The translations under genes were made by a program, and so were the position numbers. The notes under the pieces are model-generated. The model had not been told where the DNA came from. It saw only the letters and a list, made by a program, of their open reading frames with translations, and did no database searches. Below are positions 45,418-62,311 of a stretch of 64,000 nucleotides of DNA, in pieces; the stretch's first letter is position 1, and every line of letters starts with the position of its first letter. Source of the DNA: a virus; IMG/VR virus record IMGVR_UViG_3300047121_000347, positions 37,831-101,830 of that record. The stretch is one strand, 5' to 3'.

Positions 45418-45792
45418 TTAGTCGTCCGCCGTTGCGAAATCGTCGTAGTCTTCGGCGTTCTGGCCGAAGTCCCACTGGTGTGTGATGTACTGGAACAGCT
45501 CGCGGTCCCAGCTCAACAGGTTCAACTTGTAGTCCTGCTCGGTGACCAGCGCGGCGCATATGGCGCACAGCGACGGATCTCCCACCATGAGCAGGTAGTC
45601 TCCCGGCTCCCACTCACTCAATACTCGTCGCGCTTTAGCGATCATCATGCGGGTGTTGTACGGTTTGCGGGGGCGGCTAAACACTGCCCGCAGCTGACCG
45701 AACCGACGCGCATCGCTGAGGTCTTTGCTGTTGTCAACCTGCACGACGAATACGGTGCGGGTGTTACCGGATGATTGTAGAGGTGTTGTCAT
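45418..45792 (-). CDS. Conserved replication-module hypothetical protein
   Basis: VFVVQ..D.S.A.RFG, DYLL..GDP, L.WDR; start refined to ATG 45792. Confidence 0.65.
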   Translation of the reverse strand: MTTPLQSSGNTRTVFVVQVDNSKDLSDARRFGQLRAVFSRPRKPYNTRMMIAKARRVLSEWEPGDYLLMVGDPSLCAICAALVTEQDYKLNLLSWDRELFQYITHQWDFGQNAEDYDDFATADD

Positions 45793-47617
45793 TTTTACGT
45801 TTCCTAGGTTGTTTGGGTGGTGGGGCGATGAGCGCGAGCTCTTCCGAGCTGAGGTAGTTCTCACAACCCACCGCCACGGCGATCTTGATCGCCTCTTTTT
45901 GATACCAAGTGTGGTCGAGATCAGCCGGGTGTTTGATGAAGTCCTCAACGGTCATGCAGGCTCGAGCACCGTCGGTCTTGGGCACCTTGTTATTGTTCTT
46001 GATATAACGTATCGGCTCCAGCGCGGGGTCGTTAGATTGATACCACCGCACCACGCGACCCAAGTACTGACCGGCCTGAGCACCGCCGCCCGTGACGTTA
46101 CGCGCTGAGATGAAGTCTCTGAACGGCGCGGCGTGTATCGTGTCGAGCAGCGGCGTGCCTCGCGCTAACCACTGCCCCACAGCGTCTGAGCAGACCTGCG
46201 CAGTGGGGTTTTTCTTGAGCGACAACGGTGCGTAAATACCTTTAACTTTTAGCGATCGGTCCGGTTTGACGGCGATGTAGTTGTTAACATCCTTCATCGC
46301 CAGCACGCGGTAAGGCGTAAACTCAAAAGCGAACTTAGAAATTTCACCGTACCGACGCACCACCTTTTGAATAGTGTCCTCGAGCGCGGCCGGATACCGA
46401 ATCGCGATACCGTCGGTGTTGGCGGAAAGCGTGGTCGCCCCAGCCAGCTCAAGCCACTCAATCAACATGAGCAGGGTGAACTGCCCAGTCAGCGTCACAG
46501 CGAGCATCAAGTCCGGCGAGTACAGCACCGAGTAACGGCTAGCGAGCTTGCCAAATGTGCCGTTCAAAGAAATCTTGAGCGTGGCGTCCGTGGTCTTATC
46601 ACCAGAACGTTTGGCCTCCAGCCGCCGTTCGTAAATTTTACGATACTCGCGAACGAAGTCCTCACCCAGTCCGGCAGGCACAAAACCACACTCAAGGATG
46701 ATGCTGGGGTAGAAGCTAGCGGCGTCAATGTCACAGATGACGTCGGCCCCAGCGACGTAACACACTTTTCGGTCGTGAACACTATGTATACCTCCCACGC
46801 CGAGCTGATACTCGCCGGTGCCGAACGGTATAGTGCGCTCGCCCAGGAAGTCCGGCAGCACCACATGCCCGGTGTTTTGGTTCATGATGAACGTGTGCTC
46901 AGCCACCCGGTCAAGCAGTCCCTGCAACTGCGCGTCCTGAAACCGCAAAAAGCTCGGCGGCGTATAACGCACCGTACGGGGGATTTCGTTCTCCCGTCGC
47001 TGAAGGCGCATACTGGTAATGTACGCCTGCTCGGCCATCTGAGAATCAGACTTGCTGCGCATGTCGACGCCGTAACGCCGGCTCATCTCCACCCGTAACA
47101 GGACCTCTTTTTCAAGCTGCCGCAGTAGTTCGGCCGTGGTCTCAACGTCGTTGTGGCAGTATTCGAGCAGCGTAGCCTCCTGCTCGGGGCGTATGAGTTC
47201 GGCATGATGAATGGGTAGGTCTTGAAGGCGAGGCATGTGCATGCGAGCGCCGTAGGCTTTTAACCCCACAAACGAAGGAGCCACCTCGATCAGGTCGATC
47301 GAATCAAAACGCAACTCGGGCAGCATGTATTTACGCATCGCGGCCCAGGGCGCTAGGCGGTTACCGATGATATCATCCGCGATGCGTTTGATTTCGGCCT
47401 CCGTGCGGGTGTTGCAGAACGCCGCCACGACGACATTGTCAAACTCCCGCGAGTTGAACCCTACGAAAGTGCCCCCGGAGGTGAGCAGCTTCTTCAGCCG
47501 CTCAGGAGCCTCCGGCTCGTGACGCCATAGGTCAAACCACTCGCCGGTGTCTACGTTCTTGGCGCAGAACAACGTTCGGTTGCGGTAAGTTTCGGTATCA
47601 AACACCCAGGTGCTCAT
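45764..47617 (-). CDS. DNA polymerase, family B-like, with 3'-5' exonuclease
   Basis: FDTE, GFN..FD, YC.ND (exonuclease); D..SFYPS, K.SLNG.FGK, NTDG (polymerase). Confidence 0.9.
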   Translation of the reverse strand: MSTWVFDTETYRNRTLFCAKNVDTGEWFDLWRHEPEAPERLKKLLTSGGTFVGFNSREFDNVVVAAFCNTRTEAEIKRIADDIIGNRLAPWAAMRKYMLPELRFDSIDLIEVAPSFVGLKAYGARMHMPRLQDLPIHHAELIRPEQEATLLEYCHNDVETTAELLRQLEKEVLLRVEMSRRYGVDMRSKSDSQMAEQAYITSMRLQRRENEIPRTVRYTPPSFLRFQDAQLQGLLDRVAEHTFIMNQNTGHVVLPDFLGERTIPFGTGEYQLGVGGIHSVHDRKVCYVAGADVICDIDAASFYPSIILECGFVPAGLGEDFVREYRKIYERRLEAKRSGDKTTDATLKISLNGTFGKLASRYSVLYSPDLMLAVTLTGQFTLLMLIEWLELAGATTLSANTDGIAIRYPAALEDTIQKVVRRYGEISKFAFEFTPYRVLAMKDVNNYIAVKPDRSLKVKGIYAPLSLKKNPTAQVCSDAVGQWLARGTPLLDTIHAAPFRDFISARNVTGGGAQAGQYLGRVVRWYQSNDPALEPIRYIKNNNKVPKTDGARACMTVEDFIKHPADLDHTWYQKEAIKIAVAVGCENYLSSEELALIAPPPKQPRKRKNDNTSTIIR

Positions 47618-47871
47618 CTGTCTTGATTAGTGTAGCCGGAGGTCGGTTCAGCACCGTCGGACTGCTCAGTGTGGCGAGCGATCTCGATGTATTTCTCAAG
47701 AAAGTGCTGTGCCTTGAGCAGGTCCGTGAGACCGTTCTTACGTTTCCAACGCGTTACATATTTAGTGATCTGACCCTGAAAATAGTCAAGGTCGTTAGCG
47801 ACGACGTAGTCCCAGTGCTGAATGCCGGAGCGGTAATGCGAGCCGGCGACTTGTTTTTCGTTAGCACTCAT
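47614..47871 (-). CDS. DUF3310 protein (T7 gp1.7-related, putative nucleotide kinase)
   Basis: QV.G.HY..IQ.WD...G...KY..R...KNG..DL.KA. Confidence 0.75.
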   Translation of the reverse strand: MSANEKQVAGSHYRSGIQHWDYVVANDLDYFQGQITKYVTRWKRKNGLTDLLKAQHFLEKYIEIARHTEQSDGAEPTSGYTNQDR

Positions 47872-48355
47872 AACGTAACCCCTTGATGATGTTGAAAAGG
47901 TCAAGCTCACGACCCGACAGGATAAACTCATGCGCGTACGCAACGTAACGATCGTGAACCTCGAGCATCCGCCGGTTGCCGAGCTGCACCTCACGTAGGC
48001 AAAACACCGCCCCGTGAGCTATGTCGGCGAGCTTGAGCGTGCGCTGATCGCAGGCGTTGAGCTCGGGGTACACGATGCCCGCATCGAGCATTAGCCGCCG
48101 CTCGAGTTTATCAACCTGATCGCCTATGCCGTATTCGCGTTTGGCTGGCGAGGGGATGTCGCCCGTATACTGCTCGGCGAGGTCATGAAACAACGCAGCC
48201 AGGAGCAACTGACGACTGGCGTCCGGGTTTAGCAGCAAGGTAAAACAGGCAACACCATGCGAATGGTGACCGACGGTTTCAGTTTGCAGGGTCGTGAGCG
48301 TGTGAAAGCGTTTGACTTCGCTTCCGTTGATGATGAACTGAAGGGTTTTTCTCAT
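47861..48355 (-). CDS. HD-domain deoxynucleotide phosphohydrolase (YfbR/DatZ-like)
   Basis: VKRFH, ETV.HHS, ALFHDLAE..TGDIP.P.K, KLAD. Confidence 0.85.
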   Translation of the reverse strand: MRKTLQFIINGSEVKRFHTLTTLQTETVGHHSHGVACFTLLLNPDASRQLLLAALFHDLAEQYTGDIPSPAKREYGIGDQVDKLERRLMLDAGIVYPELNACDQRTLKLADIAHGAVFCLREVQLGNRRMLEVHDRYVAYAHEFILSGRELDLFNIIKGLRYEC

Positions 48356-48397
48356 GTCAGAGTTCTCAAGTTAAAAGTTATAAAGCTAGAACGGTAA

Positions 48398-48426
48398 AGT
48401 ATAGGCCACATTTGTTGAAACGCAAA
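48398..48426 (-). promoter_or_regulatory. Putative internal promoter (TTTGCG-17-TATACT)
   Basis: Lies in the AT-rich gap upstream of HD-DUF3310-Pol. Confidence 0.45.
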
Positions 48427-48427
48427 A

Positions 48428-49417
48428 TTAGCGCTTGCGAGCTGCTTCGCGCCGCTCAACCCAGTCCATGGTTGCGCTACGCCAATCGGTAGCCCGAACC
48501 GAAGCGGCCTCCACCCGGCCCGTTTCCCCTGCCCGGCGAGCCGCACTGACCATAGCCATCGGGCGGGCGACCTCGCTCAGGAAAGTGTTACGGTATGGGT
48601 TGTTAGCCAGCGGGTCGGTGCAGAACCACTCACACTCGTACAGGAACAGCTGCGGGTCGGGCTCGGTCATCAACGCACGCGGCGTAACCATCCCCCGCCA
48701 GTACCGATCAAATTCACTCGCCTGAGGTGGGAGGCTGATATACTGGTCGGCTTTGTACAGGTGGGTGTAGAGGTGCATGTTGGCGCTGACCTGCCGGTAG
48801 ATCCCGAGCGGCACTCCGAGCGCGGTGGCTATGAACTCCTGCAGCACGCTGAAATGCACCGCGTTAGCACCCAACGCACCCCACCAGATATCATTGCTAC
48901 GGTTCAACACGGTCATGTCGAGTCGGCCGGCTTGGGTTTCAAAGATGATCTGCGTGTTGCAGGCTTTGTCTTTGGTGGTCTTGGTGAGATCGGCTGGGTC
49001 CCAGATCTGCACCACCGCCTGACGGCTCTGGGGGTCGCGACGTAACACGTCTATCACCGCGAGCAGTTGATCAAAACCAAAGTGCCGACGCCAGCGGTAA
49101 CCGTACGCAGCGTTAAACGTCACGCCGTCATCGCTATACTGCCTGATGCGACTGTTGAACCGCTCAAGAAACGCGACGTCGTTGCGCCCCGCGAGCATCC
49201 AAATCGACTCCAGCAGGTGAAATATCGGGTTAGCGTCACGCCCCTCATGAAACAACACCCGCTCCTGAGGTTTGAGGTAAGTGATGATGAAAGTGTCTGT
49301 GAACGTAATAGCGGGTCCGTTACGCGTATTGCGCAGGTGCGTAGGATACGTGCGGAGCTTCCAGAATACCTCCGCGAACGCTTCGTTGACGTTGGTGGCT
49401 GTGATTGTATAGGACAT
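48428..49417 (-). CDS. Thymidylate synthase-family dUMP hydroxymethylase
   Basis: TRNG, RDANP.F, YSDDG..AYG.R, SRQAV, D.AC, RSND..WG..GAN (Asn indicates dUMP specificity), N.H.Y. Confidence 0.85.
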   Translation of the reverse strand: MSYTITATNVNEAFAEVFWKLRTYPTHLRNTRNGPAITFTDTFIITYLKPQERVLFHEGRDANPIFHLLESIWMLAGRNDVAFLERFNSRIRQYSDDGVTFNAAYGYRWRRHFGFDQLLAVIDVLRRDPQSRQAVVQIWDPADLTKTTKDKACNTQIIFETQAGRLDMTVLNRSNDIWWGALGANAVHFSVLQEFIATALGVPLGIYRQVSANMHLYTHLYKADQYISLPPQASEFDRYWRGMVTPRALMTEPDPQLFLYECEWFCTDPLANNPYRNTFLSEVARPMAMVSAARRAGETGRVEAASVRATDWRSATMDWVERREAARKR

Positions 49418-49421
49418 GATC

Positions 49422-50342
49422 TTAGAACGCCTTCTCGGGTTTGTATCGGGTCTTGGGGACGCCTTCGCCCAGCACAGTGCGAGCGTACTTGCTGTACTCG
49501 CACATGACGTTCTGCACGTCGTGTAGGGTGAGGTCGGTGATGTCGAGCTTTGTTTTGATCGCTTCGTTCAGTTCGATGAGCTTTTTGTTGAACTGCGCCG
49601 GGTTCCACACCGCGAAAGGCTTACGCCCGGTTAGGTAGTTCAACCCTCTCAAGCTACCCGGCCCTATGGGAGCGTAGGTGTAGAGATCCAACGCAGTGCC
49701 CAGGTGCTCATCCGAGTAGGTCAAGTCGGCGGCCACCTGTCCAGCCATAAAGGTGCTGATGCCAAAACTACCGGCGAGTAGGTTCACAAACTTCTCGATG
49801 CTCGGCTTGGCGTAACTGAGCTCTTCCTCAATCGCCTCCTGCAGCTGCGCGGCCGGCTGAATAATATGCCGAGCGATGGCGAGGCTTTTCAAACCGTCGG
49901 GGTCTTTCTTAGTGGGGTAAACCATATACGCCCCGCTGTAGATCTTATCAACCTTGCTGCGATAGTCCTCAACCACTCGGCTGAACGCCTCGGGTGAGAA
50001 GTCACGCGGCGCGACGGGCAACTGTTTCTCGTAGATTAACGTGAGCAGCGTTGGCGGCCAGTTGATGAGCCGAGCGATGAGCAACGTGAACCACAGGTCA
50101 GGACGTTTCTCATCGGGTTGGATCAAATACCTGATGATCCAACGGGAAACGCGGTCATCCCGGCGACGAATGTTCGTGAACTTGTAATCGCGCAGGATAG
50201 GGTCCTCGGTAAACGGAGGAGCCACACCGCTGCTATAAGCGATGTTGACTACTTCGCGTTCCCATACGAAGTAGAGCAACCCGTCAACCGAGGCGACCTG
50301 CTCAGCGGTGGTGGGGCGCGGGTAGGGACATTCTTCAATCAT
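49422..50342 (-). CDS. 5-hmU DNA kinase helical domain protein (aGPT-Pplase1-like)
   Basis: ERE, P.T.DPIL..YKFTN..R.DDRVS, R.IN.P, F.A.Q...DL, GPG...GL, QN..CE..KY. Confidence 0.8.
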   Translation of the reverse strand: MIEECPYPRPTTAEQVASVDGLLYFVWEREVVNIAYSSGVAPPFTEDPILRDYKFTNIRRRDDRVSRWIIRYLIQPDEKRPDLWFTLLIARLINWPPTLLTLIYEKQLPVAPRDFSPEAFSRVVEDYRSKVDKIYSGAYMVYPTKKDPDGLKSLAIARHIIQPAAQLQEAIEEELSYAKPSIEKFVNLLAGSFGISTFMAGQVAADLTYSDEHLGTALDLYTYAPIGPGSLRGLNYLTGRKPFAVWNPAQFNKKLIELNEAIKTKLDITDLTLHDVQNVMCEYSKYARTVLGEGVPKTRYKPEKAF

Positions 50343-50905
50343 GCTTCAAACTCCTCAATTATGCTCATGAGTTGCGGATGTGGGTCGGTGTAGTCGATGA
50401 GCCGCACGTCATAGCCCGCTGCGCGGAGGTTTTTATAACAGTTCACCACCGAATCGAACTTATCGACAAGGTTCTTCGGGTTAAATGGTTTCTCATTACC
50501 GGCGGTCAGGCGACGTTGCTTGACGCGCTCTATGCACAACTCGAGCGGGGTGTTCAGGAAAGCGTACACGTCACAGCCCGTGGGGTGAACGGCCTGGGTT
50601 ACGGCTCCGCCGAGCCCACTCGCTGAGACCAACGCCCCTTCATAGAGCACGTGGCCTAGCGGGTGGGCGCGGAGGATCTTCTCGGCTATCTCAGCCTGGG
50701 TCTTGATGGCATCCGTACCGCCGCAGGTGTTATCGTACTTGCCGATCACATACACCGGCCGTTTCAGCTGGGTAGGAGCGACCCGATAACCGGCGATTCG
50801 CGCTCCGCTCATCAATGTGTCGTTCGGGTAGGAAAAGAATTGACGCACGGCGGTGGTCTTACCCGACCCAAAGGTGCCCGCCACACGCAGTATCACGTTA
50901 CGCAT
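50339..50905 (-). CDS. P-loop kinase, putative 5-hmU DNA kinase catalytic domain
   Basis: G..GSGKTT, GKY...CGG.D, EG, C..RV..RR...N.K; ATGA overlap with the helical-domain gene. Confidence 0.8.
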   Translation of the reverse strand: MRNVILRVAGTFGSGKTTAVRQFFSYPNDTLMSGARIAGYRVAPTQLKRPVYVIGKYDNTCGGTDAIKTQAEIAEKILRAHPLGHVLYEGALVSASGLGGAVTQAVHPTGCDVYAFLNTPLELCIERVKQRRLTAGNEKPFNPKNLVDKFDSVVNCYKNLRAAGYDVRLIDYTDPHPQLMSIIEEFEA

Positions 50906-50920
50906 GTTCTCAGTTCTCCG

Positions 50921-51931
50921 TTATAGAAAGTGTTCCGCTCGGTAGGGTTGCCCCTGCTCGGGAAATATACCTGCTTTTTCCCGCAAAGACAAGCGCTCCG
51001 TTTCACATTCAGCGCGCAACCAATCCGGCAGGTTCAAGCTCCTGATGTCTTTGAACACTCCGGTGAACTCACTCAGACCACGAGCATCCGCCCACTCGAT
51101 CCGTTCCCAGGCCATATCGGCGTAAACACCGGGGTAGCGTCGTCCGAAGAAATGATTCTTGAACGTACAAAGGTTACTCTCCAACGTGAAGAACGAGGCG
51201 TTGGGCGTGTCGTAGTTGGCTTCCGTAAAGTCAAATAGTACGTTGTCAGCCTCACGACTCAGCCAGTTACACATCCCTTCAAAGTTAAAATAATTGCCGT
51301 CAAAATCATTGTTAGCGCGTTTATCCCAGACCAGTTGGTCATGCCCGGTGAGGAACAACATACCGTTGCGATGTGAACGAGAACCAGATTTATCACTAAA
51401 AAGCAGATCATCACAGTCGGCTCCGTATCCGTTCAGGTGGACGTACTCCAGGTAACTGAACGATGATAACCGACCAAACGAGAAGTAGTGGTTGCGTACA
51501 AGTTTCCACAACTCGGCGTAGGTCTTTCCGGTGAGCATAGCGAACTGCGAGCCGCCGTGTTCGGCCACCAAGTTGGCGTAGGTCTTTATGGCTTCGACGG
51601 TGTCGGCTTTTTGATACCGTCGGTCGGTGTCGTACTGCAGCCGGTCCCACTCCGCGTTGAACCACTCGCTGAATTGTGTTAGAGCCGCGCCGGGCGGCGG
51701 AACACCGGGCAGCCGGGAAGCCAACCTGAGCGAAGTAATGGGGTTCTGAGTGAGACCGTTCAAAAAGGCAAACCAGAGCTTCTGCTCATGGTCCCAGCCG
51801 TAACGCTGCGCCAGTTCGGGCATGTACAAGTACACCAACCCCGGCATGATTCCGTAAGTCAGGTTCAGACCGTAGAGCTTATCAAAGTACTCGCGACGGT
51901 TTTCCGGCAATCGGTAATCTTTAACGCTCAC
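50921..51931 (-). CDS. Amino acid:DNA transferase (aGPT-Pplase2-like)
   Basis: W.AF..G.T, DRRY.K, FGR...F.Y.E (HhH-like), ES.LC..K...RYPG.Y; GTG start with GAGGAG RBS. Confidence 0.75.
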   Translation of the reverse strand: MSVKDYRLPENRREYFDKLYGLNLTYGIMPGLVYLYMPELAQRYGWDHEQKLWFAFLNGLTQNPITSLRLASRLPGVPPPGAALTQFSEWFNAEWDRLQYDTDRRYQKADTVEAIKTYANLVAEHGGSQFAMLTGKTYAELWKLVRNHYFSFGRLSSFSYLEYVHLNGYGADCDDLLFSDKSGSRSHRNGMLFLTGHDQLVWDKRANNDFDGNYFNFEGMCNWLSREADNVLFDFTEANYDTPNASFFTLESNLCTFKNHFFGRRYPGVYADMAWERIEWADARGLSEFTGVFKDIRSLNLPDWLRAECETERLSLREKAGIFPEQGQPYRAEHFL

Positions 51932-52884
51932 TGCACACTCCTCAGGTAGTAGGGTTCGATGACTTTGGGGTTGGGCGCGGAGCCTACAATCCAGAAACCC
52001 CAAGAGTCGTCCTGCGGGATGAACCGACGCTCGCGCTGCCAGCGCCAGATCTTGGCTTCGTAGGTGGGGTGAAACTCGATGCTGCTAAACCGCTCGCCCT
52101 TGAACTTATCGCTATACCGACTGTACCCCGTGGTGTGGAGGCTGTAATGCTGCCACGCGAACGGCAGGTTCGTAACGTCGATACCGATCTTCTGCATACG
52201 CTCGCGCACCCAGGTGTGCTTTTCGGGGCCGATACCGATCGTGACAAGGCGCTTGAGGTTGTGCGGTCTGCGGCTCAACCCTAGCAGCACGCTGCAAAGG
52301 CTGTTGCACGACCCGGCGGGCATGACCAGATTTTCAACCGAATCGGGAAGGTTTTCAACCTGCCGAGCGCCGACCTCATGAAACTTACGCACGTCGTCGG
52401 CCGGGTAGCGTTCATGAGGTACGGTGATACCATACTCAACGACCAGCGACTTCTCCTGCGTCAGGTCGGCCACCCGGCGCTGAATGATCGGGTTGTACGG
52501 ACCGTTGGTGTACTCAAACTCAGCGCCGAACCCGTAGGCTATACGCGGGTTTTCATGGCTCAAAACTGTCTCCGGCTTACTGTACACCACCTGACGAGCA
52601 CGGAGTCCGTAATGTGCACCCACTATAGCGGACATGCTCAGCTGGGGGGACTGAATGCTCGCGCCGGTGACGATGTGCGTCTTACCTTCGCGATACCGAT
52701 TCACGTACCAAATCAACTGCCGCATCTTTGACCCGTTGGGACCGCCGTAACCGAGCGGAGCAAAGTAGTCATCGCGTTTGAACCAGATACCGTCGTGGTT
52801 CTCCCACGGGGTGAACGCCCCGAGGTACGCCTCCCACTGTATCTGATCGCGGTTCAGGGCGAACTGCGGAAACACGCTGCTCAT
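51928..52884 (-). CDS. PLP-dependent enzyme (fold II), putative DNA-amino acid decarboxylase
   Basis: TP....WFKRDD...NGSKMRQ, SPQ, PAGS, PTYEAK. Confidence 0.8.
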   Translation of the reverse strand: MSSVFPQFALNRDQIQWEAYLGAFTPWENHDGIWFKRDDYFAPLGYGGPNGSKMRQLIWYVNRYREGKTHIVTGASIQSPQLSMSAIVGAHYGLRARQVVYSKPETVLSHENPRIAYGFGAEFEYTNGPYNPIIQRRVADLTQEKSLVVEYGITVPHERYPADDVRKFHEVGARQVENLPDSVENLVMPAGSCNSLCSVLLGLSRRPHNLKRLVTIGIGPEKHTWVRERMQKIGIDVTNLPFAWQHYSLHTTGYSRYSDKFKGERFSSIEFHPTYEAKIWRWQRERRFIPQDDSWGFWIVGSAPNPKVIEPYYLRSVQ

Positions 52885-53015
52885 ATCAGGTTCCATCCGA
52901 AGTTAAACAGCAGGTTAAGAATACGCAAGCCCAACCCCAGCAGCACCGATCCGCTAAGGAGCAAGATCACCCAGCTCATGATCCACAAGAGGAAATAAAC
53001 ATTTTCACGCGACAT
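52881..53015 (-). CDS. 44-aa membrane protein not in the ORF track (MSRENVYFLLWIMSWVILLLSG...)
   Basis: AAGGAG RBS; ATGA overlap with the PLP gene. Confidence 0.65.
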   Translation of the reverse strand: MSRENVYFLLWIMSWVILLLSGSVLLGLGLRILNLLFNFGWNLI

Positions 53016-53463
53016 TTCTAAGCTCCTTAGCGGTTAGTTGATACCGACGGCCGTTCATCTCGGCCACGGCGGCTTCGCCACGCTTGGCGGCTTCATACAG
53101 TTTGCGGGTCAGGCGGTCTTGCTGCCCGCTGCTCATCCAGTCAGGGTGCTGCTTCCACATCTGATGAGCGTTGGGCCAGGTCTCCATAGTATCCAAGCAG
53201 CGGATTTCACGGGACAGTTTAAGCGTATCGCGCATGGCCTCTCGCTTGAGCGGCTGCTCGGTCTTGCGTGCCGGGGGGCGCTGGTTCAAGACTTTACTAT
53301 GCGAGGCGGCCTGCAACGACTCCCACAGATCAGAGCAACGCTTGATGGCTGTGGGTCGGTCGCTGAACCGACGGACGGGACGCTCGGCATACTGATTGTA
53401 GAACGCGATGAGCGCCGGGGTGGTGAGTTCGTTAAAATTCATCATGGTCGTGGGTCCTATCAA
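53005..53463 (-). CDS. Hypothetical protein
   Basis: L...YN....PVRRFSDR.TA motif; operon packing. Confidence 0.65.
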   Translation of the reverse strand: MIGPTTMMNFNELTTPALIAFYNQYAERPVRRFSDRPTAIKRCSDLWESLQAASHSKVLNQRPPARKTEQPLKREAMRDTLKLSREIRCLDTMETWPNAHQMWKQHPDWMSSGQQDRLTRKLYEAAKRGEAAVAEMNGRRYQLTAKELRNVA

Positions 53464-53678
53464 AAAGGGGCTTCTTCAAAATCTTCAACACTCGGGGGTG
53501 ACTTGGGGGTGCGCACGGCTTTGACTTGCGAGATGTGGAGGATGACCCACTGCGGAAATGGCCAGTTGGTCTCTTGATTGATGAGCCGCACTGAACATCC
53601 CCCGTCAGCATGAATCGCCTCCAGCACACCCAGGCCTGAAGGCGTCATCACACGATCGCCTTGTTGATGGTAACGCAT
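53460..53678 (-). CDS. Small SH3/KOW-like hypothetical protein
   Basis: GDRV.TPSGLG; ends EEAPF. Confidence 0.6.
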   Translation of the reverse strand: MRYHQQGDRVMTPSGLGVLEAIHADGGCSVRLINQETNWPFPQWVILHISQVKAVRTPKSPPSVEDFEEAPF

Positions 53679-53681
53679 CGT

Positions 53682-53888
53682 TCAAACCCCCTCAACAACG
53701 TACTCAGCGTCCAGCGGTGCGTCGATAGCCGCGAGGTAATCCTCGACGGCGTCTTGCTGCGTCGCGCCGTGGCCAATCGGGTCACCGGGCTCGTAGTCCG
53801 GGCTGCAAGCCGCCCAGTCAAAACAGCGCACCGGAATAGGAGCTAGGCGAAATGATACGTGGATTTTAATCACGGCGAAACCTCTCAC
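53682..53888 (-). CDS. Hypothetical protein
   Basis: PIP.R.FDW.A...YE.GDP.G.G.T..A motif. Confidence 0.65.
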   Translation of the reverse strand: MRGFAVIKIHVSFRLAPIPVRCFDWAACSPDYEPGDPIGHGATQQDAVEDYLAAIDAPLDAEYVVEGV

Positions 53889-54144
53889 TCAACAGATGCT
53901 GAACCTCGGTTCGAATTTCTTCGTCCTCAGCCCAGGTGGCTTTGGCGGCTAGCTCGGGGGACAACTGGCCGTCTTCATCAAGCACGTGCCACTCGCAGTC
54001 AAACCAGCCGTGGTAGTCAAGGTCGCTGGCGGCGTTGCGGTTAAACGTGCCGCGTACGCTCTCGTAGGACAACACGCCGATGATGCACGGAACACCGCCG
54101 ATGCGGTGCTCGAACGTGAGGAGGTACTTGTCCGGGGTGGTCAT
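53866..54144 (-). CDS. Hypothetical protein
   Basis: GVPC, A.SD.DY.G motif; GAGGAG RBS. Confidence 0.65.
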   Translation of the reverse strand: MTTPDKYLLTFEHRIGGVPCIIGVLSYESVRGTFNRNAASDLDYHGWFDCEWHVLDEDGQLSPELAAKATWAEDEEIRTEVQHLLSERFRRD

Positions 54145-54149
54145 TTGGG

Positions 54150-54335
54150 TTACTCCTCGACGGTGACTTCGAGTTGAGCAGCTTCAATCGCGTGCTTCAG
54201 AGGCCACACCGCTAACCAGGCTTCGGCCTGCAACGCGCCGACGTATTGCGGGTCTTGAAACGTCTTCATGCTTGCTCTTTCGATCTTGCTGAGCACTTCG
54301 ATGACTTTAACAAGTTGGCTGACTGTGACTTTCAT
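54150..54335 (-). CDS. Hypothetical protein
   Basis: 61 aa with an AACTC-repeat leader and AAGGA RBS. Confidence 0.6.
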   Translation of the reverse strand: MKVTVSQLVKVIEVLSKIERASMKTFQDPQYVGALQAEAWLAVWPLKHAIEAAQLEVTVEE

Positions 54336-54364
54336 TTTGAGTTCCTTTGAGTTGTTGAGTTATG

Positions 54365-54380
54365 AGGGGCCGAAGCCCCG
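54365..54380 (-). terminator. GC hairpin (GGGGC-TTCG-GCCCC) with a weak U-tract
   Basis: UUCG tetraloop directly after the 54388-54720 stop. Confidence 0.45.
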
Positions 54381-54387
54381 TTGGTAA

Positions 54388-54720
54388 TTAAAGTGAAGTG
54401 ACTTTGACGCTGAAAACAGCTGAAACCTTGGTGTTTTTGGCGACCAAGTTGCTGATGACACTGTTGATGTCGATCTGAGGGTTCTGCTGTTGGATGAGGT
54501 CAGCGAGTACCGTTACAATGGATTTGTAGTCAACCGTTGCGCGGTTGCTCTCGCTGTAAGTCGCTTTGAACAATACACCCTCGACGACCTTAGCACCGCC
54601 GGCGCTAGCAGCGTCTTTGATTTGGTTCTTGATTTCCTCGGCACGAGCCTCGAGGGTTTTGATCTCAGCGAGCAACGCGCCGAGCTGATCAATACTGGTG
54701 AGTTTGAGATCGTTAAGCAT
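54388..54720 (-). CDS. Conserved early hypothetical protein
   Basis: ID.LG.L.A.I..L, EG.LFKAT; GGAGAACT RBS. Confidence 0.75.
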   Translation of the reverse strand: MLNDLKLTSIDQLGALLAEIKTLEARAEEIKNQIKDAASAGGAKVVEGVLFKATYSESNRATVDYKSIVTVLADLIQQQNPQIDINSVISNLVAKNTKVSAVFSVKVTSL

Positions 54721-54762
54721 TTGAAGTTCTCCGAGTTAGTAAGTTATCAAGGTACAACGGTT

Positions 54763-54793
54763 TGAATTAAAACTCATTTCAAACGTGGATTGA
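54763..54793 (-). promoter_or_regulatory. Conserved early promoter-like element TCAATCCACG-N4-AAATRAGTTTTAATTCA
   Basis: 26/31 identical to 59155-59185 on the opposite strand. Confidence 0.65.
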
Positions 54794-54805
54794 GGGTATA
54801 ACCAT

Positions 54806-55159
54806 TCAGTCTGGTTGGGTATTGACACGCTCCCTCCCGCGCCCCAGGTTGAACGGGTCGTTGAACATAGGCGGCGAGGTGTTCGGTCGTTTCTTCTTTG
54901 ACGGAATGGGCTTGGTGGCTTTGTAGTAGCCGAGCTTAACGACTTTGCTCGCTAGGGAGGTCTGCTCAAATTTGAAAGTTCGCTCCACTTCTCCCGCCAT
55001 CAGCAGCGGGCGCAGGTTGCCCGTAATGCACGCTGTGGTCACCTTGAACCGTTCGGCCAGCGCGGTCGTTGAGACCGGAGTGGTGCGATTCCTCAGGTAA
55101 TTGAGTAGCTGCCGTTGCCGATCATTGATCACCAGCGGAGGTAGTTCATGCTCGCTCAT
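54806..55159 (-). CDS. Winged-HTH DNA-binding protein
   Basis: RQ..LL.YL....PVS...LAERF.VT...I...L..L...G. Confidence 0.65.
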   Translation of the reverse strand: MSEHELPPLVINDRQRQLLNYLRNRTTPVSTTALAERFKVTTACITGNLRPLLMAGEVERTFKFEQTSLASKVVKLGYYKATKPIPSKKKRPNTSPPMFNDPFNLGRGRERVNTQPD

Positions 55160-55374
55160 GACTGGGTCTCCCCGGCGAGCTGCCACCGGCGATAGGTTTC
55201 ATGTTTACGCATCGTTTCCGGGCACTCCCGTGAGGGCGGCACCCAACCGTGACGACGCCACACGTCCTCAACGGGCAGGCACCAGTTGCCGGGTTTGATC
55301 TGCCTGTTGAACTCCGCAACCCAACCGGGTGGTTTCGGCTGATCGTCTTGGGCAGTGTTGATGATGTTATCCAT
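55156..55374 (-). CDS. Hypothetical protein
   Basis: WRRHGWVPPS motif; GGAGAACT RBS. Confidence 0.6.
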   Translation of the reverse strand: MDNIINTAQDDQPKPPGWVAEFNRQIKPGNWCLPVEDVWRRHGWVPPSRECPETMRKHETYRRWQLAGETQS

Positions 55375-57526
55375 TCTGCAGTTCTCCTTCTTCGGGGTTA
55401 AAAATACGTAATGAGCCGGGCTCGGTGGGGTAATGCTGCGCGATGAGCGCTTCATTCAGCCGCACGTAATGATTGGCGCGGCCCTGCGGTTTCTCAAGCT
55501 CGACCCGCTCCACCAACCCATCGGCTAGCAGGGAGTTCATCAACCGCTCGCGTCGTTCTTGAGAACACTTCAGACCGCCCTCGGCCGTGGTCAACCGCTC
55601 AAAATAGCTTCGTGCTCGGTTGGGGTTGGCACGGATGAGCTGAATCATTTGCTGCGTCAGGGTGGCCCACTGCGTGCGCTCGCGCTCCTCCTTGACTTGA
55701 TCCTTGAGGTCTATGCGCTCGCCGGGCTTGAGCGGCCGGGCGACGGCATGCGCAAACCACACATCACGCATATGCCCCAACACGTCGGCGTGGCGCTCAC
55801 GATTGCTGACCAGTTCAAAAGCCAGCTCCGGGTAGGCGGCCGGGAACCTGACCTTGAGCGCTTTTAACACTCGCGGAGCATTGACGTCTTCGCCATCTTT
55901 GAACACAGCGTAAACCCCCTGCGCATCCCCGGTCCAGGCCGACGCCCCGCGTGGGCTGAGGTAATCGGACTCCTGCGAGCCGAGAATCTTAGCCGTGTGG
56001 CTGACGATGAGTATAGGGAACGCCGCAAAGGCCTGCTTCACCTCGGCCATCGCCCGCCCCACCTCGGCGTTGTCGTTTTCATTCTCAAGGTCAAACACAG
56101 CGTTGGCGGTATCAAACACCACGAGCGGTAGCGCGGCATGCGCTGTGCCGTCAACACGGGCGTTGTCCACCGTCCAGGCTCGGTACTCGCTCGCAACCGC
56201 GCCCACCACTTTGGGTTGCAACCGGCGGGCGGGTATGACCCGCACCCGAGCTTCAAACTCGGCGCTGCTCGCTCCGGTGCAACCCCACGAGTACAGCGAG
56301 TAGACGGTGCGTTGAACCTGCTCAACGGATTCGGTAATGATGATGACATTACGCCGCACCGTGGGGCGGAGGGTGTAGTCCGCCGGGCACAAGTGCGCGG
56401 CCGCCAACGCCAACGGTATGACTAGGGTGGTCTTGCCGACGCCGGGGGCACCAGCCACCACGTTCACCCCCACGCTCATAAAGTCATCAAAGATGTACTC
56501 AAACATGGGCGGGCGTTCGGCCCCGGACTCTCGTGCCTCGCTCAGGGCGAACGGATGTTTACCCTCGGGGGTGGTGGGGCTGCCTGCGGACGGGGTATTA
56601 CCCGACCAACCGTTGTCGATGGCGAGGCGGAAAATGGACCGGTACGTAATGGAGTGTGGCTGCTCGATGTCGCGCTCCCACTTGCGGCGCTGCGCGGCGG
56701 CGTTGAACTTGTCGCTCTGAGCCGCCCACTCGGTCCAGATCTTGTAACCGTTCTCGCCATACGGACGTAGCGCCATTCCGACGTTGACCCACGTGGTGTA
56801 GTCATCAGCGTCGACGTGCTTGAGCGCGGAACGCAGGTCATCAAAGGTCTGCGCTGTGGCTACGGGCACCCCACCCCGCTCCACTAGGCTGTAGTTCACC
56901 GGGGAGTGCGCCCGGTCAAGAATCAAGTTGGGTAGGGGCGAGGGCTGCGCCGGAGCCGACCGCGACAACGGCGAACGACCCGCCGCCCAACGATACTCGC
57001 CGGAGGGTCCCAACGTGGGCGCGACGCAGATGTAACCGTGGTGCTTCAGGTCAAGCCCACGACCCAACGAGCCGGGGTAGCTGAGTTCGGGCGATGCCTG
57101 AAAGATGCGATGCTCGCCGCCGCCCTGGGTGACCGCCGTGAGGTCGGAGTGCAGGACGCCGTGCTCGGCCTCGAGCGTCGCAAGGCTCTCCGCACCGCCG
57201 TTTTGCGGATCAATGTCAAGGGCGAGCAACCCCGAGTCAGCTAGGCTAACCCCTATGCCCGCCTCCGGGTCGGTTGACCACCATTGGCGAATGCGCTCCT
57301 CATCAGTCGTCGCGTCTTGATGCCCATGCGGCACCAGTTGAGACTGAGGATGCTTGCCGGCTTTGTGGCCCTGCTCGCTGTTGGCGCGGCCGCATCGGCA
57401 CTGCCCATGGGCGTCCACCGACCACACCGGCAACACCGCCCACCCCAACCGAGCGTAAGCCAGTGCGTAGTCGAGCGTGGTGGGGGCGCGGTCCACGGCC
57501 CAGAGTTGTTTTTGTTTACTGACCAC
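55367..57526 (-). CDS. Primase-helicase: Prim-Pol + PriCT-2 + AAA (RecA-like)
   Basis: A.AYA..GW.VLP, GKHP, ATTD, LDIDP..GG, T.GGG.H; Y..W..VG.AL; GAPGVGKT; RGAS. Confidence 0.9.
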   Translation of the reverse strand: MVSKQKQLWAVDRAPTTLDYALAYARLGWAVLPVWSVDAHGQCRCGRANSEQGHKAGKHPQSQLVPHGHQDATTDEERIRQWWSTDPEAGIGVSLADSGLLALDIDPQNGGAESLATLEAEHGVLHSDLTAVTQGGGEHRIFQASPELSYPGSLGRGLDLKHHGYICVAPTLGPSGEYRWAAGRSPLSRSAPAQPSPLPNLILDRAHSPVNYSLVERGGVPVATAQTFDDLRSALKHVDADDYTTWVNVGMALRPYGENGYKIWTEWAAQSDKFNAAAQRRKWERDIEQPHSITYRSIFRLAIDNGWSGNTPSAGSPTTPEGKHPFALSEARESGAERPPMFEYIFDDFMSVGVNVVAGAPGVGKTTLVIPLALAAAHLCPADYTLRPTVRRNVIIITESVEQVQRTVYSLYSWGCTGASSAEFEARVRVIPARRLQPKVVGAVASEYRAWTVDNARVDGTAHAALPLVVFDTANAVFDLENENDNAEVGRAMAEVKQAFAAFPILIVSHTAKILGSQESDYLSPRGASAWTGDAQGVYAVFKDGEDVNAPRVLKALKVRFPAAYPELAFELVSNRERHADVLGHMRDVWFAHAVARPLKPGERIDLKDQVKEERERTQWATLTQQMIQLIRANPNRARSYFERLTTAEGGLKCSQERRERLMNSLLADGLVERVELEKPQGRANHYVRLNEALIAQHYPTEPGSLRIFNPEEGELQNG

Positions 57527-59054
57527 CGAACCTCTCCTCCAAAACATTCCAGTAGCGCCCCCGCTTGATTATACGCACCTCTTGTGGCTGGCGCGGCGCA
57601 TTACGCAACTGCCACAACACCGACCGAGCCGGCGCGGGCAGCCTAACGGCCAGCGCCCGCTGATTGAAGAACCTAACAGCACGCTGATCGGGTTGCGCCG
57701 AGTTGATGAACTGCGACGCCTGAAGGCGTGCGCCTTCGGGGGTCATGCAGTTGTAGTTGACGAGCAGGATTGGCGTGGCGGGGTCGCGGCGAGTGGTGAT
57801 AGCTACGCTGTTTACGGTATGCACCTGCGCAGTCAGCACAGCGCCGTCTTGGGCCTCCTGGCCCGTCATGGGGTCAATGGGTGATAACTTGATGAGCCCA
57901 GGGCGCATCTCCCGCTCGCGGCGCTCGGCCGGGTCGGCGCGGACCTGCTCAAGATGGCCAGCGTCATTCTTCTCCCGGTAATACGTCTCCATCATATCAA
58001 CCCCGCCCAGCCGGATGAGGTTGCCGACGTAGTCCAAGATGAGGCAGTTGCGTTTGCTTTCATGCAGTCGGGTACCTCGCCCTTGCATCTGCACCCACAA
58101 TGATGAGGACAGCGTGGGTCGCAGGCACACGATGCAGTCCAATGCCGGGTGATCGAACCCCGTGGTGAGCATATCCACCGAGCACAACACCCGAGTTTGC
58201 CCACTCGTGAACCGCCCCAACACCGCCTGACGTTGCTCCTCATCAAGAGCGCTGGTGAGCACCTCGGTCGTCCAGCCGGTCATGGCCTGAATGACGAGCG
58301 CAGCTCGCTTGGCGGCCACCACCGTCGGGCAGTACACCGCGACGTGCCGACGGCGCACAGCCAACTCACCCAGCGACCGGGCCACGCTGATGAGCCACTC
58401 CTCGGTCTCAAGGTTGGCCACTTCGGACTGCACGTAGTCGCTGTCGATCTTTACGCCACCCACGTCAAGCTGAACGGCGGTCTCAACCCCAACGAGGGGG
58501 CAGAGGTAGCCCTCCTGCACTGCGCGAGGCACATTGTAGGCGTACGCCAACCGATCAAACCAGAACTGCTCCCCCTCGCCGTAGATCACGCCGTTGTCCA
58601 TACGCCACGGGGTGGCGGTCATAGCGATGCGTTGGGCCTGGGGTTGCCCGCTCAGCAGCCGCTCATACTGAGTCGGCTCCCCGTGGTTATGCGGCACGCG
58701 GTGTGCTTCGTCAATGATGATGAGTGCCGGCGGGGGCATACGCCCCGTGGCACTGATGACGGTTTGAATGGTGCCGTAGATGATCGGCGCGTCGTAGTCG
58801 CGGCGCTTCAGCCCGGTGCAGACCACACCCGGCTCCGCGCCGGTATGCCGAGCGTAGGTGGCGGCATTCTGCCTCACCAACTGTTGAACGTGAGTGAGTA
58901 CCCACGTTCGGCCGGGCAGCCGCCGACGAGCCAACTCAGCTATGATGAGGGACTTTCCCGTCCCGGTGGCGAGCTGCAACGCCGGGTTGCCACCCGCGTC
59001 GAGCGCATTGAGTGCGGAGTCGACCGCCTCAAGTTGATAGGGTCTCAGATCCAT
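57516..59054 (-). CDS. SF2 (DExH) helicase, RadD/YejH-like, copy 2
   Basis: LRPYQ, TGTGKS, DEAH, TATP, LTTGFD.P, QM.GRG.R. Confidence 0.9.
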   Translation of the reverse strand: MDLRPYQLEAVDSALNALDAGGNPALQLATGTGKSLIIAELARRRLPGRTWVLTHVQQLVRQNAATYARHTGAEPGVVCTGLKRRDYDAPIIYGTIQTVISATGRMPPPALIIIDEAHRVPHNHGEPTQYERLLSGQPQAQRIAMTATPWRMDNGVIYGEGEQFWFDRLAYAYNVPRAVQEGYLCPLVGVETAVQLDVGGVKIDSDYVQSEVANLETEEWLISVARSLGELAVRRRHVAVYCPTVVAAKRAALVIQAMTGWTTEVLTSALDEEQRQAVLGRFTSGQTRVLCSVDMLTTGFDHPALDCIVCLRPTLSSSLWVQMQGRGTRLHESKRNCLILDYVGNLIRLGGVDMMETYYREKNDAGHLEQVRADPAERREREMRPGLIKLSPIDPMTGQEAQDGAVLTAQVHTVNSVAITTRRDPATPILLVNYNCMTPEGARLQASQFINSAQPDQRAVRFFNQRALAVRLPAPARSVLWQLRNAPRQPQEVRIIKRGRYWNVLEERFGGQ

Positions 59055-59093
59055 CGCAGTTATCGGTTATGGGGTTGAACAAAAGGGTTTTTC

Positions 59094-59122
59094 ATTATGC
59101 GCACTCCCGGCGGGAAAGGCAA
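59094..59122 (-). promoter_or_regulatory. Helicase promoter, copy 2 (TTGCCT-17-CATAAT)
   Basis: Homologous to 834-862. Confidence 0.65.
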
Positions 59123-59154
59123 ATTATAACCAACCAAAGCGAGTGGTTATATGT

Positions 59155-59185
59155 TCAATCCACGCGCCAAATAAGTTTTAATTCA
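59155..59185 (+). promoter_or_regulatory. Early-cassette promoter-like element (TTCAAT-17-TTTAAT)
   Basis: Repeat of 54763-54793. Confidence 0.65.
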
Positions 59186-59228
59186 CTTCAGCAACAACTT
59201 AATAACTTTTAACTCAGGAGAACTCAGC

Positions 59229-59615
59229 ATGAAACTAGGCACACAAACCGGAAGCCTCATCAATCACGTCCTCTCGGGCAGCACCACGGGCAAGCCCCCT
59301 TACGTGGGGATGCCCGCTACGCTGCTCGCTTGGTCGGACCGTTACCCCGCCACGGTGGTTGAGGTCAACAACTTGAAACGGTACATCGTGGTGCAGGAAG
59401 ACCACGCCCGACGCATTGACCGGAACGGTCTCAGCGAGCAGCAAGTCTACGAGTACACCCCCAACCCCAACGGTCATCGGCGCATCTTCCGTAAAATGAA
59501 GAACGGCCAGTGGGCCGAGCACTTCATCAACCCCGAGACGAAGCGCCTGGTAAAAGCCAGCAGCTGCGGGTTGTGGCTCGGGCACCGCGAGAAGTATGAA
59601 GATCCCTCGTTTTGA
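59229..59615 (+). CDS. Early hypothetical protein, copy 2 only
   Basis: TGSL.N, P.VGM.AT...WSDR...TV, G.R..Y.DPSF motifs; AGGAGAACT RBS. Confidence 0.8.
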   Translation: MKLGTQTGSLINHVLSGSTTGKPPYVGMPATLLAWSDRYPATVVEVNNLKRYIVVQEDHARRIDRNGLSEQQVYEYTPNPNGHRRIFRKMKNGQWAEHFINPETKRLVKASSCGLWLGHREKYEDPSF

Positions 59616-59631
59616 CAGCTGGAGCAAACAC

Positions 59632-59946
59632 ATGCAAAAGAAACGCAACATGCGCGGCGACCCCGGCGGCCCTGATGACGAGCCGGGCTGCTCACGGGAC
59701 CCCGCACACCCCCACGGTTTCGACCGCAACGCCAGCCACAACGCCGGACGTTACGTGTGCCTTTGCGAAGGGTTCCTGGACGCCACCGTGGACGACGGCT
59801 CGTTGGCGGTGGTGCGCGAACTGGCGCAACGCGACGACTACGTCATGGTGCACGCCACGGAGCTACAAGAGCTGCTCGCTCAGCTGGACGAGCTGCGCGA
59901 TCGGGTAACCGCACTCACGTATAAAGAGGAGAAACAAAGATGGTGA
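59632..59946 (+). CDS. Early hypothetical protein (homologue of 3651-3965)
   Basis: Near-identical protein. Confidence 0.8.
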   Translation: MQKKRNMRGDPGGPDDEPGCSRDPAHPHGFDRNASHNAGRYVCLCEGFLDATVDDGSLAVVRELAQRDDYVMVHATELQELLAQLDELRDRVTALTYKEEKQRW

Positions 59947-60194
59947 AGAACTACGTCGCGGGTCAATCCACGTGGCGACTACCCGCCGAGGACCCCCCGC
60001 CGTTGGGGGTGAAGATGCTCCTCCTGAACCGAGGGGGCGTGTGCGTCATAGGCACTTGGGGTGCGTGGGCGTTGGCTTGGGCACCGTTGCCGCTCATCCC
60101 CGAGCACATAAAAGCGGCGCTGCTCCCGGCGGGGTATGCCCGGCAGCTCGAACCCGTTGAAGATTGGAAACTACACGCAGGAGACGCCGCATGA
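59940..60194 (+). CDS. Early hypothetical protein (homologue of 3403-3657)
   Basis: Near-identical protein. Confidence 0.75.
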   Translation: MVKNYVAGQSTWRLPAEDPPPLGVKMLLLNRGGVCVIGTWGAWALAWAPLPLIPEHIKAALLPAGYARQLEPVEDWKLHAGDAA

Positions 60195-61924: not shown

Positions 61925-61926
61925 AC

Positions 61927-62169: not shown

Positions 62170-62172
62170 CGT

Positions 62173-62310
62173 ATGCGAAAAAGTTTACATCTAACTACTG
62201 AATTCTTGCCGCGCAAGTGGCCCTGCTTCGCCGTGGGGTTCGTGAGTAGTGGCAGCGAATTTGTACTGCACCTGTATCTGGTGTGCTTCCGTATTCGATG
62301 GGGGTATTGA
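62173..62310 (+). CDS. 45-aa small protein (homologue of 1571-1708)
   Basis: Manual translation. Confidence 0.7.
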   Translation: MRKSLHLTTEFLPRKWPCFAVGFVSSGSEFVLHLYLVCFRIRWGY

Positions 62311-62311
62311 A

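Follow-up and report, generated by a model that had tools for sequence, protein, structure and literature searches.

The stretch of DNA analysed here (the window) is 64,000 nucleotides long and corresponds to bases 37831-101830 of the 101,830-bp IMG/VR record IMGVR_UViG_3300047121_000347, from an uncultured virus. On its minus strand, at 47614-52896, it carries a co-directional array of genes predicted to hypermodify thymidine in DNA. The stop and start codons of successive genes overlap or abut, and the array runs on into a DNA polymerase gene. In order, the genes code for a pyridoxal 5'-phosphate (PLP) enzyme, here called PLP1, an amino acid:DNA transferase (ADDT), a P-loop 5-hydroxymethyl-2'-deoxyuridine (5-hmdU) DNA kinase (5-HMUDK), a HMUDK_hel protein, an enzyme of the thymidylate synthase (TS) family, an HD phosphohydrolase, a DUF3310 protein and the polymerase. 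A preliminary description of this DNA had recognised the first five; all five are found on the minus strand at the places it gave, and Pfam and PHROG matches put them in the families it named.

PLP1 (51928-52896) is a fold-type-II PLP enzyme of the phage ViI gp226 family and a predicted decarboxylase, whose Pfam PALP match is weak (2e-4) but whose match to PHROG 3650 is strong (3e-79). The ADDT gene (50921-51931, within an open reading frame [ORF] at 50921-52003) codes for a protein of the family formerly called aGPT-Pplase2, with a PF18724 match of 63.2 bits against a cut-off of 26.2 (E value of 3.8e-17); this family occurs twice in the record. The kinase (50339-50905; 188 aa) has the Walker A motif GTFGSGKTT and matches PF18748 at 27.8 bits. 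HMUDK_hel, formerly aGPT-Pplase1 (49422-50342), matches PF18723 at 135.5 bits (3e-39), and the TS-family enzyme (48428-49417), a predicted dUMP hydroxymethylase, matches PF00303 (1.5e-22) and PHROG 5131 (1e-104). They are followed by a YfbR-like 5'-deoxynucleotidase with an HD domain (47861-48355; PF12917, 1e-9) and by the DUF3310 protein (47614-47871; PF11753, and PHROG 5839, annotated in PHROGs as 'nucleotide kinase'), whose start at position 47871 is Met42 of a longer ORF. A domain scan and tblastn over the record also bore out the reported absence of certain other tailoring genes. No radical S-adenosylmethionine (SAM) domain was found anywhere in the 101.8-kb record, and tblastn detected no homologue there of M6 gp53, of PaMx11 gp47 (a flavin adenine dinucleotide [FAD] lyase) or of PaMx11 gp48 (an acetyltransferase). 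As had been proposed, the genes make up a complete thymidine-hypermodification set of the transferase-plus-PLP type, ViI-like in composition, with no radical SAM enzyme, FAD lyase or acetyltransferase.

The junctions between the genes are tight. GTG 51931, behind a GAGGAG Shine-Dalgarno sequence, overlaps the TGA of PLP1 (GTGA) and is most likely the true start of ADDT; the apparent 76-nt overlap of the two genes arises because the ORF caller took an upstream TTG. Relatives have an equivalent ATGA overlap at this junction, and the stop codon of the kinase and the ATG of HMUDK_hel also overlap as ATGA. Such overlaps point to coupled expression. For PLP1, the start proposed earlier, ATG 52884, is the probable one, with 52896 as the alternative. 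A 32-codon ORF at 52881-52979 (minus strand) codes for a very hydrophobic peptide, MSWVILLLSGSVLLGLGLRILNLLFNFGWNLI, and it ends in a TGA that shares four bases (ATGA, 52881-52884) with the second ATG codon of PLP1, which supports 52884 as the start and hints that the product is a candidate small membrane peptide coupled to PLP1. Promoter and terminator scans gave background levels only. Two neighbours are considered as context only. The polymerase gene (45764-47617, minus strand; PHROG 1252, 6e-161), the last of the coupled array, codes for a protein 38-39% identical to the polymerases of phages AchV4, R7M and Seurat/CAjan. A conserved 152-aa protein (o152; 53005-53463, minus strand) is encoded upstream of PLP1/ADDT in almost all related loci; it has no Pfam match, and an ESM Atlas lead to DUF3489 was sub-threshold, with a score of 0.83.

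Conservation of the array and relatives of its enzymes

A PLP1 relative is encoded on 124 or more contigs of IMG/VR, and the full order, from o152 through PLP1, ADDT, P-loop kinase, HMUDK_hel, TS homologue, HD protein and DUF3310 protein to the polymerase, recurs in about 79 further IMG/VR contigs with PLP identities of 61-99%. The recurrence argues that the array is not a chance grouping and, together with the invariant catalytic motifs in these diverged contigs, points to purifying selection. Moreover, near-identical operon DNA was found in 20 lake or freshwater runs across 19 studies, of which four are possibly the source, and independent runs cover 50000-59781 with 0-6 differences. We conclude that the operon is real, intact and conserved, and that its predicted logic is a known one: hydroxymethylase, kinase, transferase and PLP decarboxylase. 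In some relatives (L053, L090, L105, L099, L061 and L123) variable inserts separate PLP1 from ADDT; the window copy has none. They include a 60-aa zinc-ribbon ORF (CxxCxGxG), a MazG-like ORF of 100 aa and a DHH/DHHA1 phosphoesterase, and, at 10 or more loci, an ORF of 248-255 aa that matches nothing in Pfam. The first 25 codons of ADDT are apparently split off by a GIY-YIG-like ORF in L123.

The kinase is 37% identical to PaMx11 gp49 (4e-23) and 29% identical to M6 gp54 (1e-14), and the HMUDK_hel protein is 32% identical to M6 gp55 (3e-45). M6 gp54 alone phosphorylates 5-hmdU in DNA (PMC8989533). HMUDK_hel is here a stand-alone gene, and M6 gp55 and PaMx11 gp50 are likewise stand-alone PF18723 proteins encoded after a P-loop kinase of about 188 aa. 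The preliminary description had counted the encoding of the kinase as two ORFs among its reasons to expect a new base, but the same arrangement is seen in M6 (gp54 and gp55) and PaMx11 (gp49 and gp50) and is hence ordinary. In the table of a 2018 paper, too, the classes that correspond are listed as distinct gene products for ViI (gp160) and PhiW-14 (gp72), and as a fused one for SP10. A kinase split by a frameshift was considered and rejected: the ATGA junction is kept down to 42% protein identity. In the Pfam scan, the only P-loop kinase of the cluster matched PF18748 and not PF18747; M6 and PaMx11 also have one kinase only.

The TS homologue is 45% identical over its full length to M6 gp58 and PaMx11 gp51. 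Among solved proteins, the CMP hydroxymethylase MilA matches it best (6e-23), and true thymidylate synthases score lower (about 1e-13); the homologue keeps both the nucleophilic cysteine (DKACNTQ) and the uracil-type asparagine (RSND...GAN). We predict that it is a dUMP hydroxymethylase making 5-hmdUMP. The HD protein, 34% identical to PaMx11 gp52 and M6 gp59 and in the same position, may shape the dNMP pool. The DUF3310 protein, 52% identical to M6 gp61 and 40% to PaMx11 gp53, is a candidate hmdUMP kinase.

PLP1 is 34% identical to ViI gp226 (6e-65, BLASTP), a demonstrated decarboxylase of O-serinylthymidine (O-SerT) that itself scores 2.5e-241 against PHROG 3650. Lys57 of PLP1 (GPNGSKMRQ) aligns with its counterparts in gp226 (NGSKL), M6 gp52 (K36) and D-cysteine desulfhydrase (4d8t; NKLRK), and this Schiff-base lysine motif is invariant in 89 relatives. 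PLP1 is predicted to decarboxylate an amino-acid adduct bound to DNA. An exhaustive profile search also recovered metagenomic fusion proteins in which a domain of the PLP1 family, 30-40% identical to PLP1, is joined to an ADDT of the same clade as that of the window. In P0017, the PLP1-like domain precedes the ADDT, and the two are 40% and 39% identical to the window proteins; in P0018 and P0041 the ADDT comes first; and P0028 combines a HMUD2 kinase, a PLP1-like domain and an ADDT in one chain of 1278 aa. These fusions, the coupling of stops and starts and the gene order conserved in the roughly 79 contigs together support the action of PLP1 on the ADDT product on DNA. The fusions would also be useful to biochemists as single-polypeptide versions of the pathway. 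Kinase-ADDT and TET/JBP-ADDT fusions occur in the same ADDT clade as well. Across the fusions recovered, P0014 and P0015 among them, domains of the PLP1, ADDT, kinase and TET/JBP families are combined in several orders.

Strain copies in the record and the second PLP gene

The record (G000) is rated 100% complete in IMG/VR. Comparison of its bases 9195-38698 with 26163-59128 of the window revealed duplicated tail and replication/modification modules at 73-82% nucleotide identity, spaced one genome length apart; the part of the record that repeats window modules extends from base 1 to about 38.9 kb. Related contigs rated complete by CheckV are 54-58 kb long, one of them with direct terminal repeats, and at 63153 of the window a third pass opens (63153-63740) with a gene for a small terminase subunit (TerS) of a different type. 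The record is thus about 1.75 genome lengths from two related phages of about 57 kb, and not a single genome. We refer to the upstream copy, outside the window, as copy A and to the carrier of the operon under study as copy B. The record is probably a chimera, co-assembled from related lake phages whose maps are circularly permuted, and statements on the whole contig, such as its size or gene count, are unsafe. Identity levels are mosaic, which blurs the point at which the assembly switches strain. Two copies of an early-gene cassette, from helicase to TerS, lie in opposite orientations at 909-3965 (minus strand) and 59632-62777 (plus strand) of the window, with 84-94% identity; the cassette ORFs have no Pfam domains. 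In Logan data from four lake metagenomes, modules of this cassette are covered 5-15 times as deeply as the backbone and have many alternative joints, the probable cause of the chimeric assembly. In one related contig, G006, the cassette lies between two inverted helicase genes, 98% and 90% identical to that of copy B. The cassette may be able to invert, or phages that occur together may exchange it freely.

The portal protein is 63% identical to that of an uncultured Manatee Spring phage, 47% identical to those of Caulobacter phages RW, KcrB, RLK and GB2A, and 31-37% identical to those of roseophages CRP-901/902 and pelagiphages HTVC023P/027P. Judged from these relatives, a podovirus-like phage, as suggested before, is plausible. 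Neither of the nearest structural relatives, MW202545 and Caulobacter phage RW, carries an ADDT or a TS-like gene, and both are uninformative on the modification itself; since these two, the closest of the phages compared, lack the modification genes, we take the module to have been acquired by this subgroup.

Copy A has the genes for the TS homologue, the helical protein, the kinase and ADDT, and no PLP gene adjoins its ADDT. A different PLP gene, PLP2 (3982-4902, minus strand), is located in the cassette after copy A's helicase. The protein has a PALP fold (PF00291, 36 bits) and matches PHROG 7093 (2e-40), of which M6 gp52 is the model member; its family assignment is by PHROG 7093 and Pfam only, with no detectable similarity to PLP1 and none to M6 gp52 by BLASTP. 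Beside copy B's helicase PLP2 is absent: homologous blocks flank 59617-59632, with no gene between them, and the same junction without PLP2 is seen in G006 (98-99% identical to copy B) and in Logan contigs from two independent lake runs. Copies of PLP2 96-97% identical to it are present in G002 and G008, both without PLP1; G003, G004 and G005 have PLP1 only, and G001 has neither. This distribution, among contigs that are mutually related, is suggestive of PLP1 and PLP2 being alternatives that do not share a genome. A further PLP enzyme, the one at 3982, had been offered as another sign of a new base, an argument that falls away because the gene lies in the other genome copy and is missing from the homologous site of copy B.

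In a sub-lineage that comprises copy A (31369-32385 of the record) and loci L005, L006, L007, L017 and L020, the ADDT is 80-85% identical and no PLP1 adjoins it. PLP2 is found in the early cassette of three of the four PLP1-less genomes with data, the fourth (G001) having neither gene. Possibly, PLP1 has undergone non-orthologous replacement in this sub-lineage, or the sub-lineage stops at the amino-acid adduct. The sole relatives of PLP2 in cultured phages (H136-H138; 28-33% identity), in Erythrobacter phages vB_EliS_R6L and ZS04 and Microcystis phage Mae-JY30, lie under features annotated as 'DNA modification methylase' or ParB. Unless that annotation is mistaken, they are fused proteins encoded at other DNA-modification loci.

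Donor specificity and the predicted product

The ADDT (residues numbered on the 360-aa ORF) is 27% identical to the serine:DNA transferase gp247 of ViI (E value of 2e-24), with an HHalign probability of 99.4% (8e-22). MAFFT and HHalign alignments indicate conservation of the catalytic Cys279, the metal ligands Glu275 and Ser276, and Tyr290. Structural and mutational work on PaMx11 gp46, the YuA Pplase2 and the enzyme of Acinetobacter phage 15599 provides the basis for reading these residues (PMC11472151, PMC13458397). In PaMx11 gp46, the catalytic residue is Cys247 and the metal is bound by Glu243 and Thr244 (PMC11472151), so that Ser276 is a conservative Thr-to-Ser change in the metal pair. 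In YuA, K248 and Y257 hold the carboxylate of glycine, and their exchange turns a diamine transferase into a glycine transferase (PMC13458397). Thr280 follows the catalytic cysteine here; at this position M6 and PaMx11 have Lys, ViI and a Vibrio ackermannvirus have Trp, and the diamine transferase has Gly. Thus, the tyrosine is kept (Tyr290), but the lysine that marks a glycine-specific enzyme is not. Nor does the protein group with the ViI cluster of serine:DNA transferases, as its match to gp247 falls short of the 1e-50 cut-off used for the sequence similarity network in PMC13458397, and as it has Thr for Trp.

The motif ESNLCTFKNHFFGRRYP (ESNLCTFKN...GRRYP), with an extra arginine ahead of the conserved tyrosine, is present in 80 of 85 relatives. 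The ADDTs of Glutamicibacter phage Montesquieu (38% identity) and mycobacteriophage Lolalove (35%) have the same Thr, and among the 150 nearest representative clusters the donor position is occupied by T, A, C, S, W, Q and others. We found no report in the literature that characterises an enzyme of this Thr/RRY clade. The conserved Cys, Glu/Ser and Tyr fit a carboxylate-bearing donor. Furthermore, the absence of a radical SAM isomerase and the presence of a gp226-type PLP enzyme would require that the adduct has a free alpha-amine and hence that the amino acid is attached through its side chain, like serine in ViI. The earlier suggestion that the donor may be other than that of ViI has a real, if indirect, sequence basis in Thr280, as against the Trp of ViI and the Lys of glycine transferases. 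A search of PDB sequences with the ADDT profile found nothing, and HHalign of that profile with PaMx11 gp46 was insignificant outside the catalytic motif. AlphaFold2 models, built from alignments with 6-8 close relatives only, were unusable (mean pLDDT, the predicted local distance difference test score, of 52 for ADDT and 47 for PLP1), and Foldseek of the models against the PDB returned nothing significant, with PaMx11 gp46 (8z2n) at a TM score of about 0.3.

We propose that the array at 47614-52896 is a functional pathway for post-replicative thymidine hypermodification in an uncultured phage of about 57 kb from fresh water, a reading to which we give a probability of about 0.72. The TS-family enzyme would hydroxymethylate dUMP, and some hmdUTP would go into DNA instead of dTTP, a step aided by the HD nucleotidase and DUF3310 protein. 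Going by its homology to the characterised M6 gp54 and PaMx11 gp49, the 188-aa kinase would then convert 5-hmdU in DNA to 5-phosphomethyl-2'-deoxyuridine (5-PmdU). From the residues aligned above, ADDT may use Cys279 and a metal bound by Glu275 and Ser276 to expel the phosphate and add a carboxylate-bearing donor. Lastly, PLP1 would engage the free alpha-amine of the adduct as a Schiff base and decarboxylate it. The most likely product is 5-(2-aminoethoxy)methyl-2'-deoxyuridine (5-NeOmdU) or a related decarboxylated, side-chain-linked adduct. The route with a precedent, from serine through O-SerT to 5-NeOmdU, is the single most likely outcome, although by itself it falls somewhat short of an even chance. 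The operon is a mosaic in which, by its sequence relationships, a kinase/precursor block of the M6/PaMx11 type is joined to a ViI-type PLP enzyme and to an ADDT of an uncharacterised clade.

Several observations weigh against this proposal. Every activity in the pathway is assigned by homology. The PF18748 score of the kinase is borderline, the cut-off being 27 bits, and tblastn with ViI gp243 found no second, HMUD2-type kinase in the record. No dUTPase, dTTPase or dCMP deaminase was recognised. The ADDT shares only 27% identity with gp247 and is nearer to the uncharacterised actinophage enzymes of Montesquieu and Coopervirus (38% and 35%), and its Thr280, at the donor-switching position where ViI has Trp, makes serine insecure as the donor.

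The donor is also where the strongest alternative arises. A side-chain donor other than serine (Thr, Cys, homoserine, Orn, Lys or 2,4-diaminobutyrate, for example), followed by decarboxylation by PLP1, is tentative but nearly as likely as serine, and would give either an undescribed base or a known polyamine-type base by a new route. It is favoured by Thr at the donor-determining position, by the motif shared by 80 of 85 relatives, by the additional Arg before the conserved Tyr, by the varied residues of the 150 nearest clusters, which suggest many specificities, and by the lack of a reported characterised enzyme in the closest clade. However, PLP1 is clearly a relative of ViI gp226 and the gene composition is that of ViI; also, one pocket residue does not define the donor, and ADDTs can be promiscuous in vitro. 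The new base put forward in the preliminary description accordingly loses the arguments from the split kinase and the extra PLP enzyme and keeps the one from a different amino acid; we regard it as possible, though doubtful, that this lineage makes an undescribed thymidine derivative, with an ADDT donor other than glycine, serine or a diamine, and that gene swaps yield a natural series of bases. If this is true, relatives with PLP1, with PLP2 elsewhere and with neither would set the amino-acid adduct beside its decarboxylated form within one lineage. A greater departure, in which PLP1 is not a decarboxylase but acts on the adduct by beta-replacement, elimination or racemisation, or supplies a non-standard donor amino acid to the ADDT, seems improbable to us. 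Fold-type-II PLP enzymes typically perform beta-chemistry, the nearest solved relative of PLP1 by sequence is a D-cysteine desulfhydrase (a weak match, 7e-4), and identity to gp226 is only 34%; but both phage members characterised in such a context, ViI gp226 and M6 gp52, decarboxylate on DNA, and the fusion of PLP1-like domains to ADDT and kinase argues for a DNA-bound substrate.

Two further alternatives concern the genes around the transferase and the record itself. That the TS homologue is an ordinary thymidylate synthase, its neighbours being relics or acting on another substrate, is the least probable of all: PF00303 membership alone fails to separate synthase from hydroxymethylase, but the enzyme is 45% identical to those of M6 and PaMx11, phages with DNA modifications derived from 5-hmdU, MilA is closer than any thymidylate synthase, and the partner genes are all intact and conserved in about 80 contigs. 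It is also very unlikely, if slightly less so, that the 101.8-kb record represents a single real genome, with a pair of hypermodification clusters and PLP2 acting alongside the operon. All parts do lie on one IMG/VR contig rated as complete, and both strains occur in the same lakes, which makes co-infection of one host population plausible. Against this stand the tail and replication modules duplicated at 73-82% identity one genome length apart, the complete relatives of 54-58 kb, one with terminal repeats, the different TerS that starts a third pass at 63153, and the finding of PLP1 or PLP2, never both, in independent contigs; moreover, an early cassette at 5-15 times the depth, with many joints, is a classic source of chimeric assembly.

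The predicted chemistry is of a known anti-restriction type, in which part of the thymine is swapped for an amino-acid-derived base. DNA with hypermodified thymidine resists most type II restriction enzymes, and the enzymes that make such bases are under development as DNA-labelling tools. The general pathway and combinatorial clusters in IMG/VR have already been reported (Lee et al., 2021). What the present locus would add is transferase-plus-decarboxylase chemistry of the ViI type outside the Ackermannviridae, in an abundant and recurrent group of lake phages, and in a compact cassette of seven genes open to direct reconstitution. Its ADDT, from a large uncharacterised clade and differing at the donor-reprogramming residue, is a good candidate for a new donor, and the PLP1, PLP2 and PLP-less variants among near relatives form a natural experiment on the evolution of the final base.

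Comparison with known systems

Phage ViI (kinases gp67 and gp243, gp160, the transferase gp247 and gp226) has the same enzyme classes and logic as the array, likewise with no radical SAM enzyme, FAD lyase or acetyltransferase. PLP1 belongs to the gp226 family, with the lysine conserved, and the ADDT is a clear homologue of gp247. In contrast to ViI, the array has a single kinase, which is of the M6/PaMx11 type, and lacks HMUD2; its genes are tightly packed into one operon, while those of ViI are scattered over at least 10 kb; and ViI is a myovirus of the Ackermannviridae, not a freshwater phage of about 57 kb.

The Pseudomonas phages M6, with 5-(2-aminoethyl)-2'-deoxyuridine (5-NedU), and PaMx11, with 5-acetylaminomethyl-2'-deoxyuridine (5-AcNmdU), both Mesyanzhinovviridae, have the same order of kinase, HMUDK_hel, TS homologue, HD and DUF3310 genes toward the polymerase (gp54, 55, 58, 59 and 61 of M6; gp49-53 of PaMx11), at 26-52% identity. 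Their ADDTs, however, are glycine transferases, with Lys after the Cys and no significant similarity to the present one outside the catalytic motif, and neither PLP1 nor ADDT has significant BLAST similarity to its counterparts there. The tailoring sets of M6 (radical SAM and a gp52-type PLP enzyme) and of PaMx11 (FAD lyase and acetyltransferase) are both absent here, and the polymerase is unrelated.

Two actinophage systems carry transferases of the same kind. In Coopervirus phages such as Lolalove, a cassette of ParB, TET/JBP, ADDT and kinase genes includes an ADDT 35% identical to that of the window, with the same Cys-Thr and RRY motif; unlike in the window, 5-hmU is made on DNA by a T-dioxygenase, and the cassette has no TS-like and no PLP enzyme. 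Glutamicibacter phage Montesquieu (L035; OV696619, 932-10982), a cheese-rind phage whose paper does not mention DNA modification, has the closest ADDT of any cultured phage (38%), again with Thr and the RRY motif. This ADDT gene directly adjoins one of the PLP1 family (30% identity, 2e-34), and a HMUDK_hel homologue (MONT_52) and a TS/hydroxymethylase are also encoded; MONT_40, annotated 'ABC transporter', is at the expected place of the P-loop kinase and has no BLASTP similarity to the window kinase. Montesquieu differs in its actinobacterial host, in the order of ADDT before PLP, in an extra thymidylate-kinase-like gene and in a much larger TS-like protein, and it offers an accessible cultured model for this ADDT clade.

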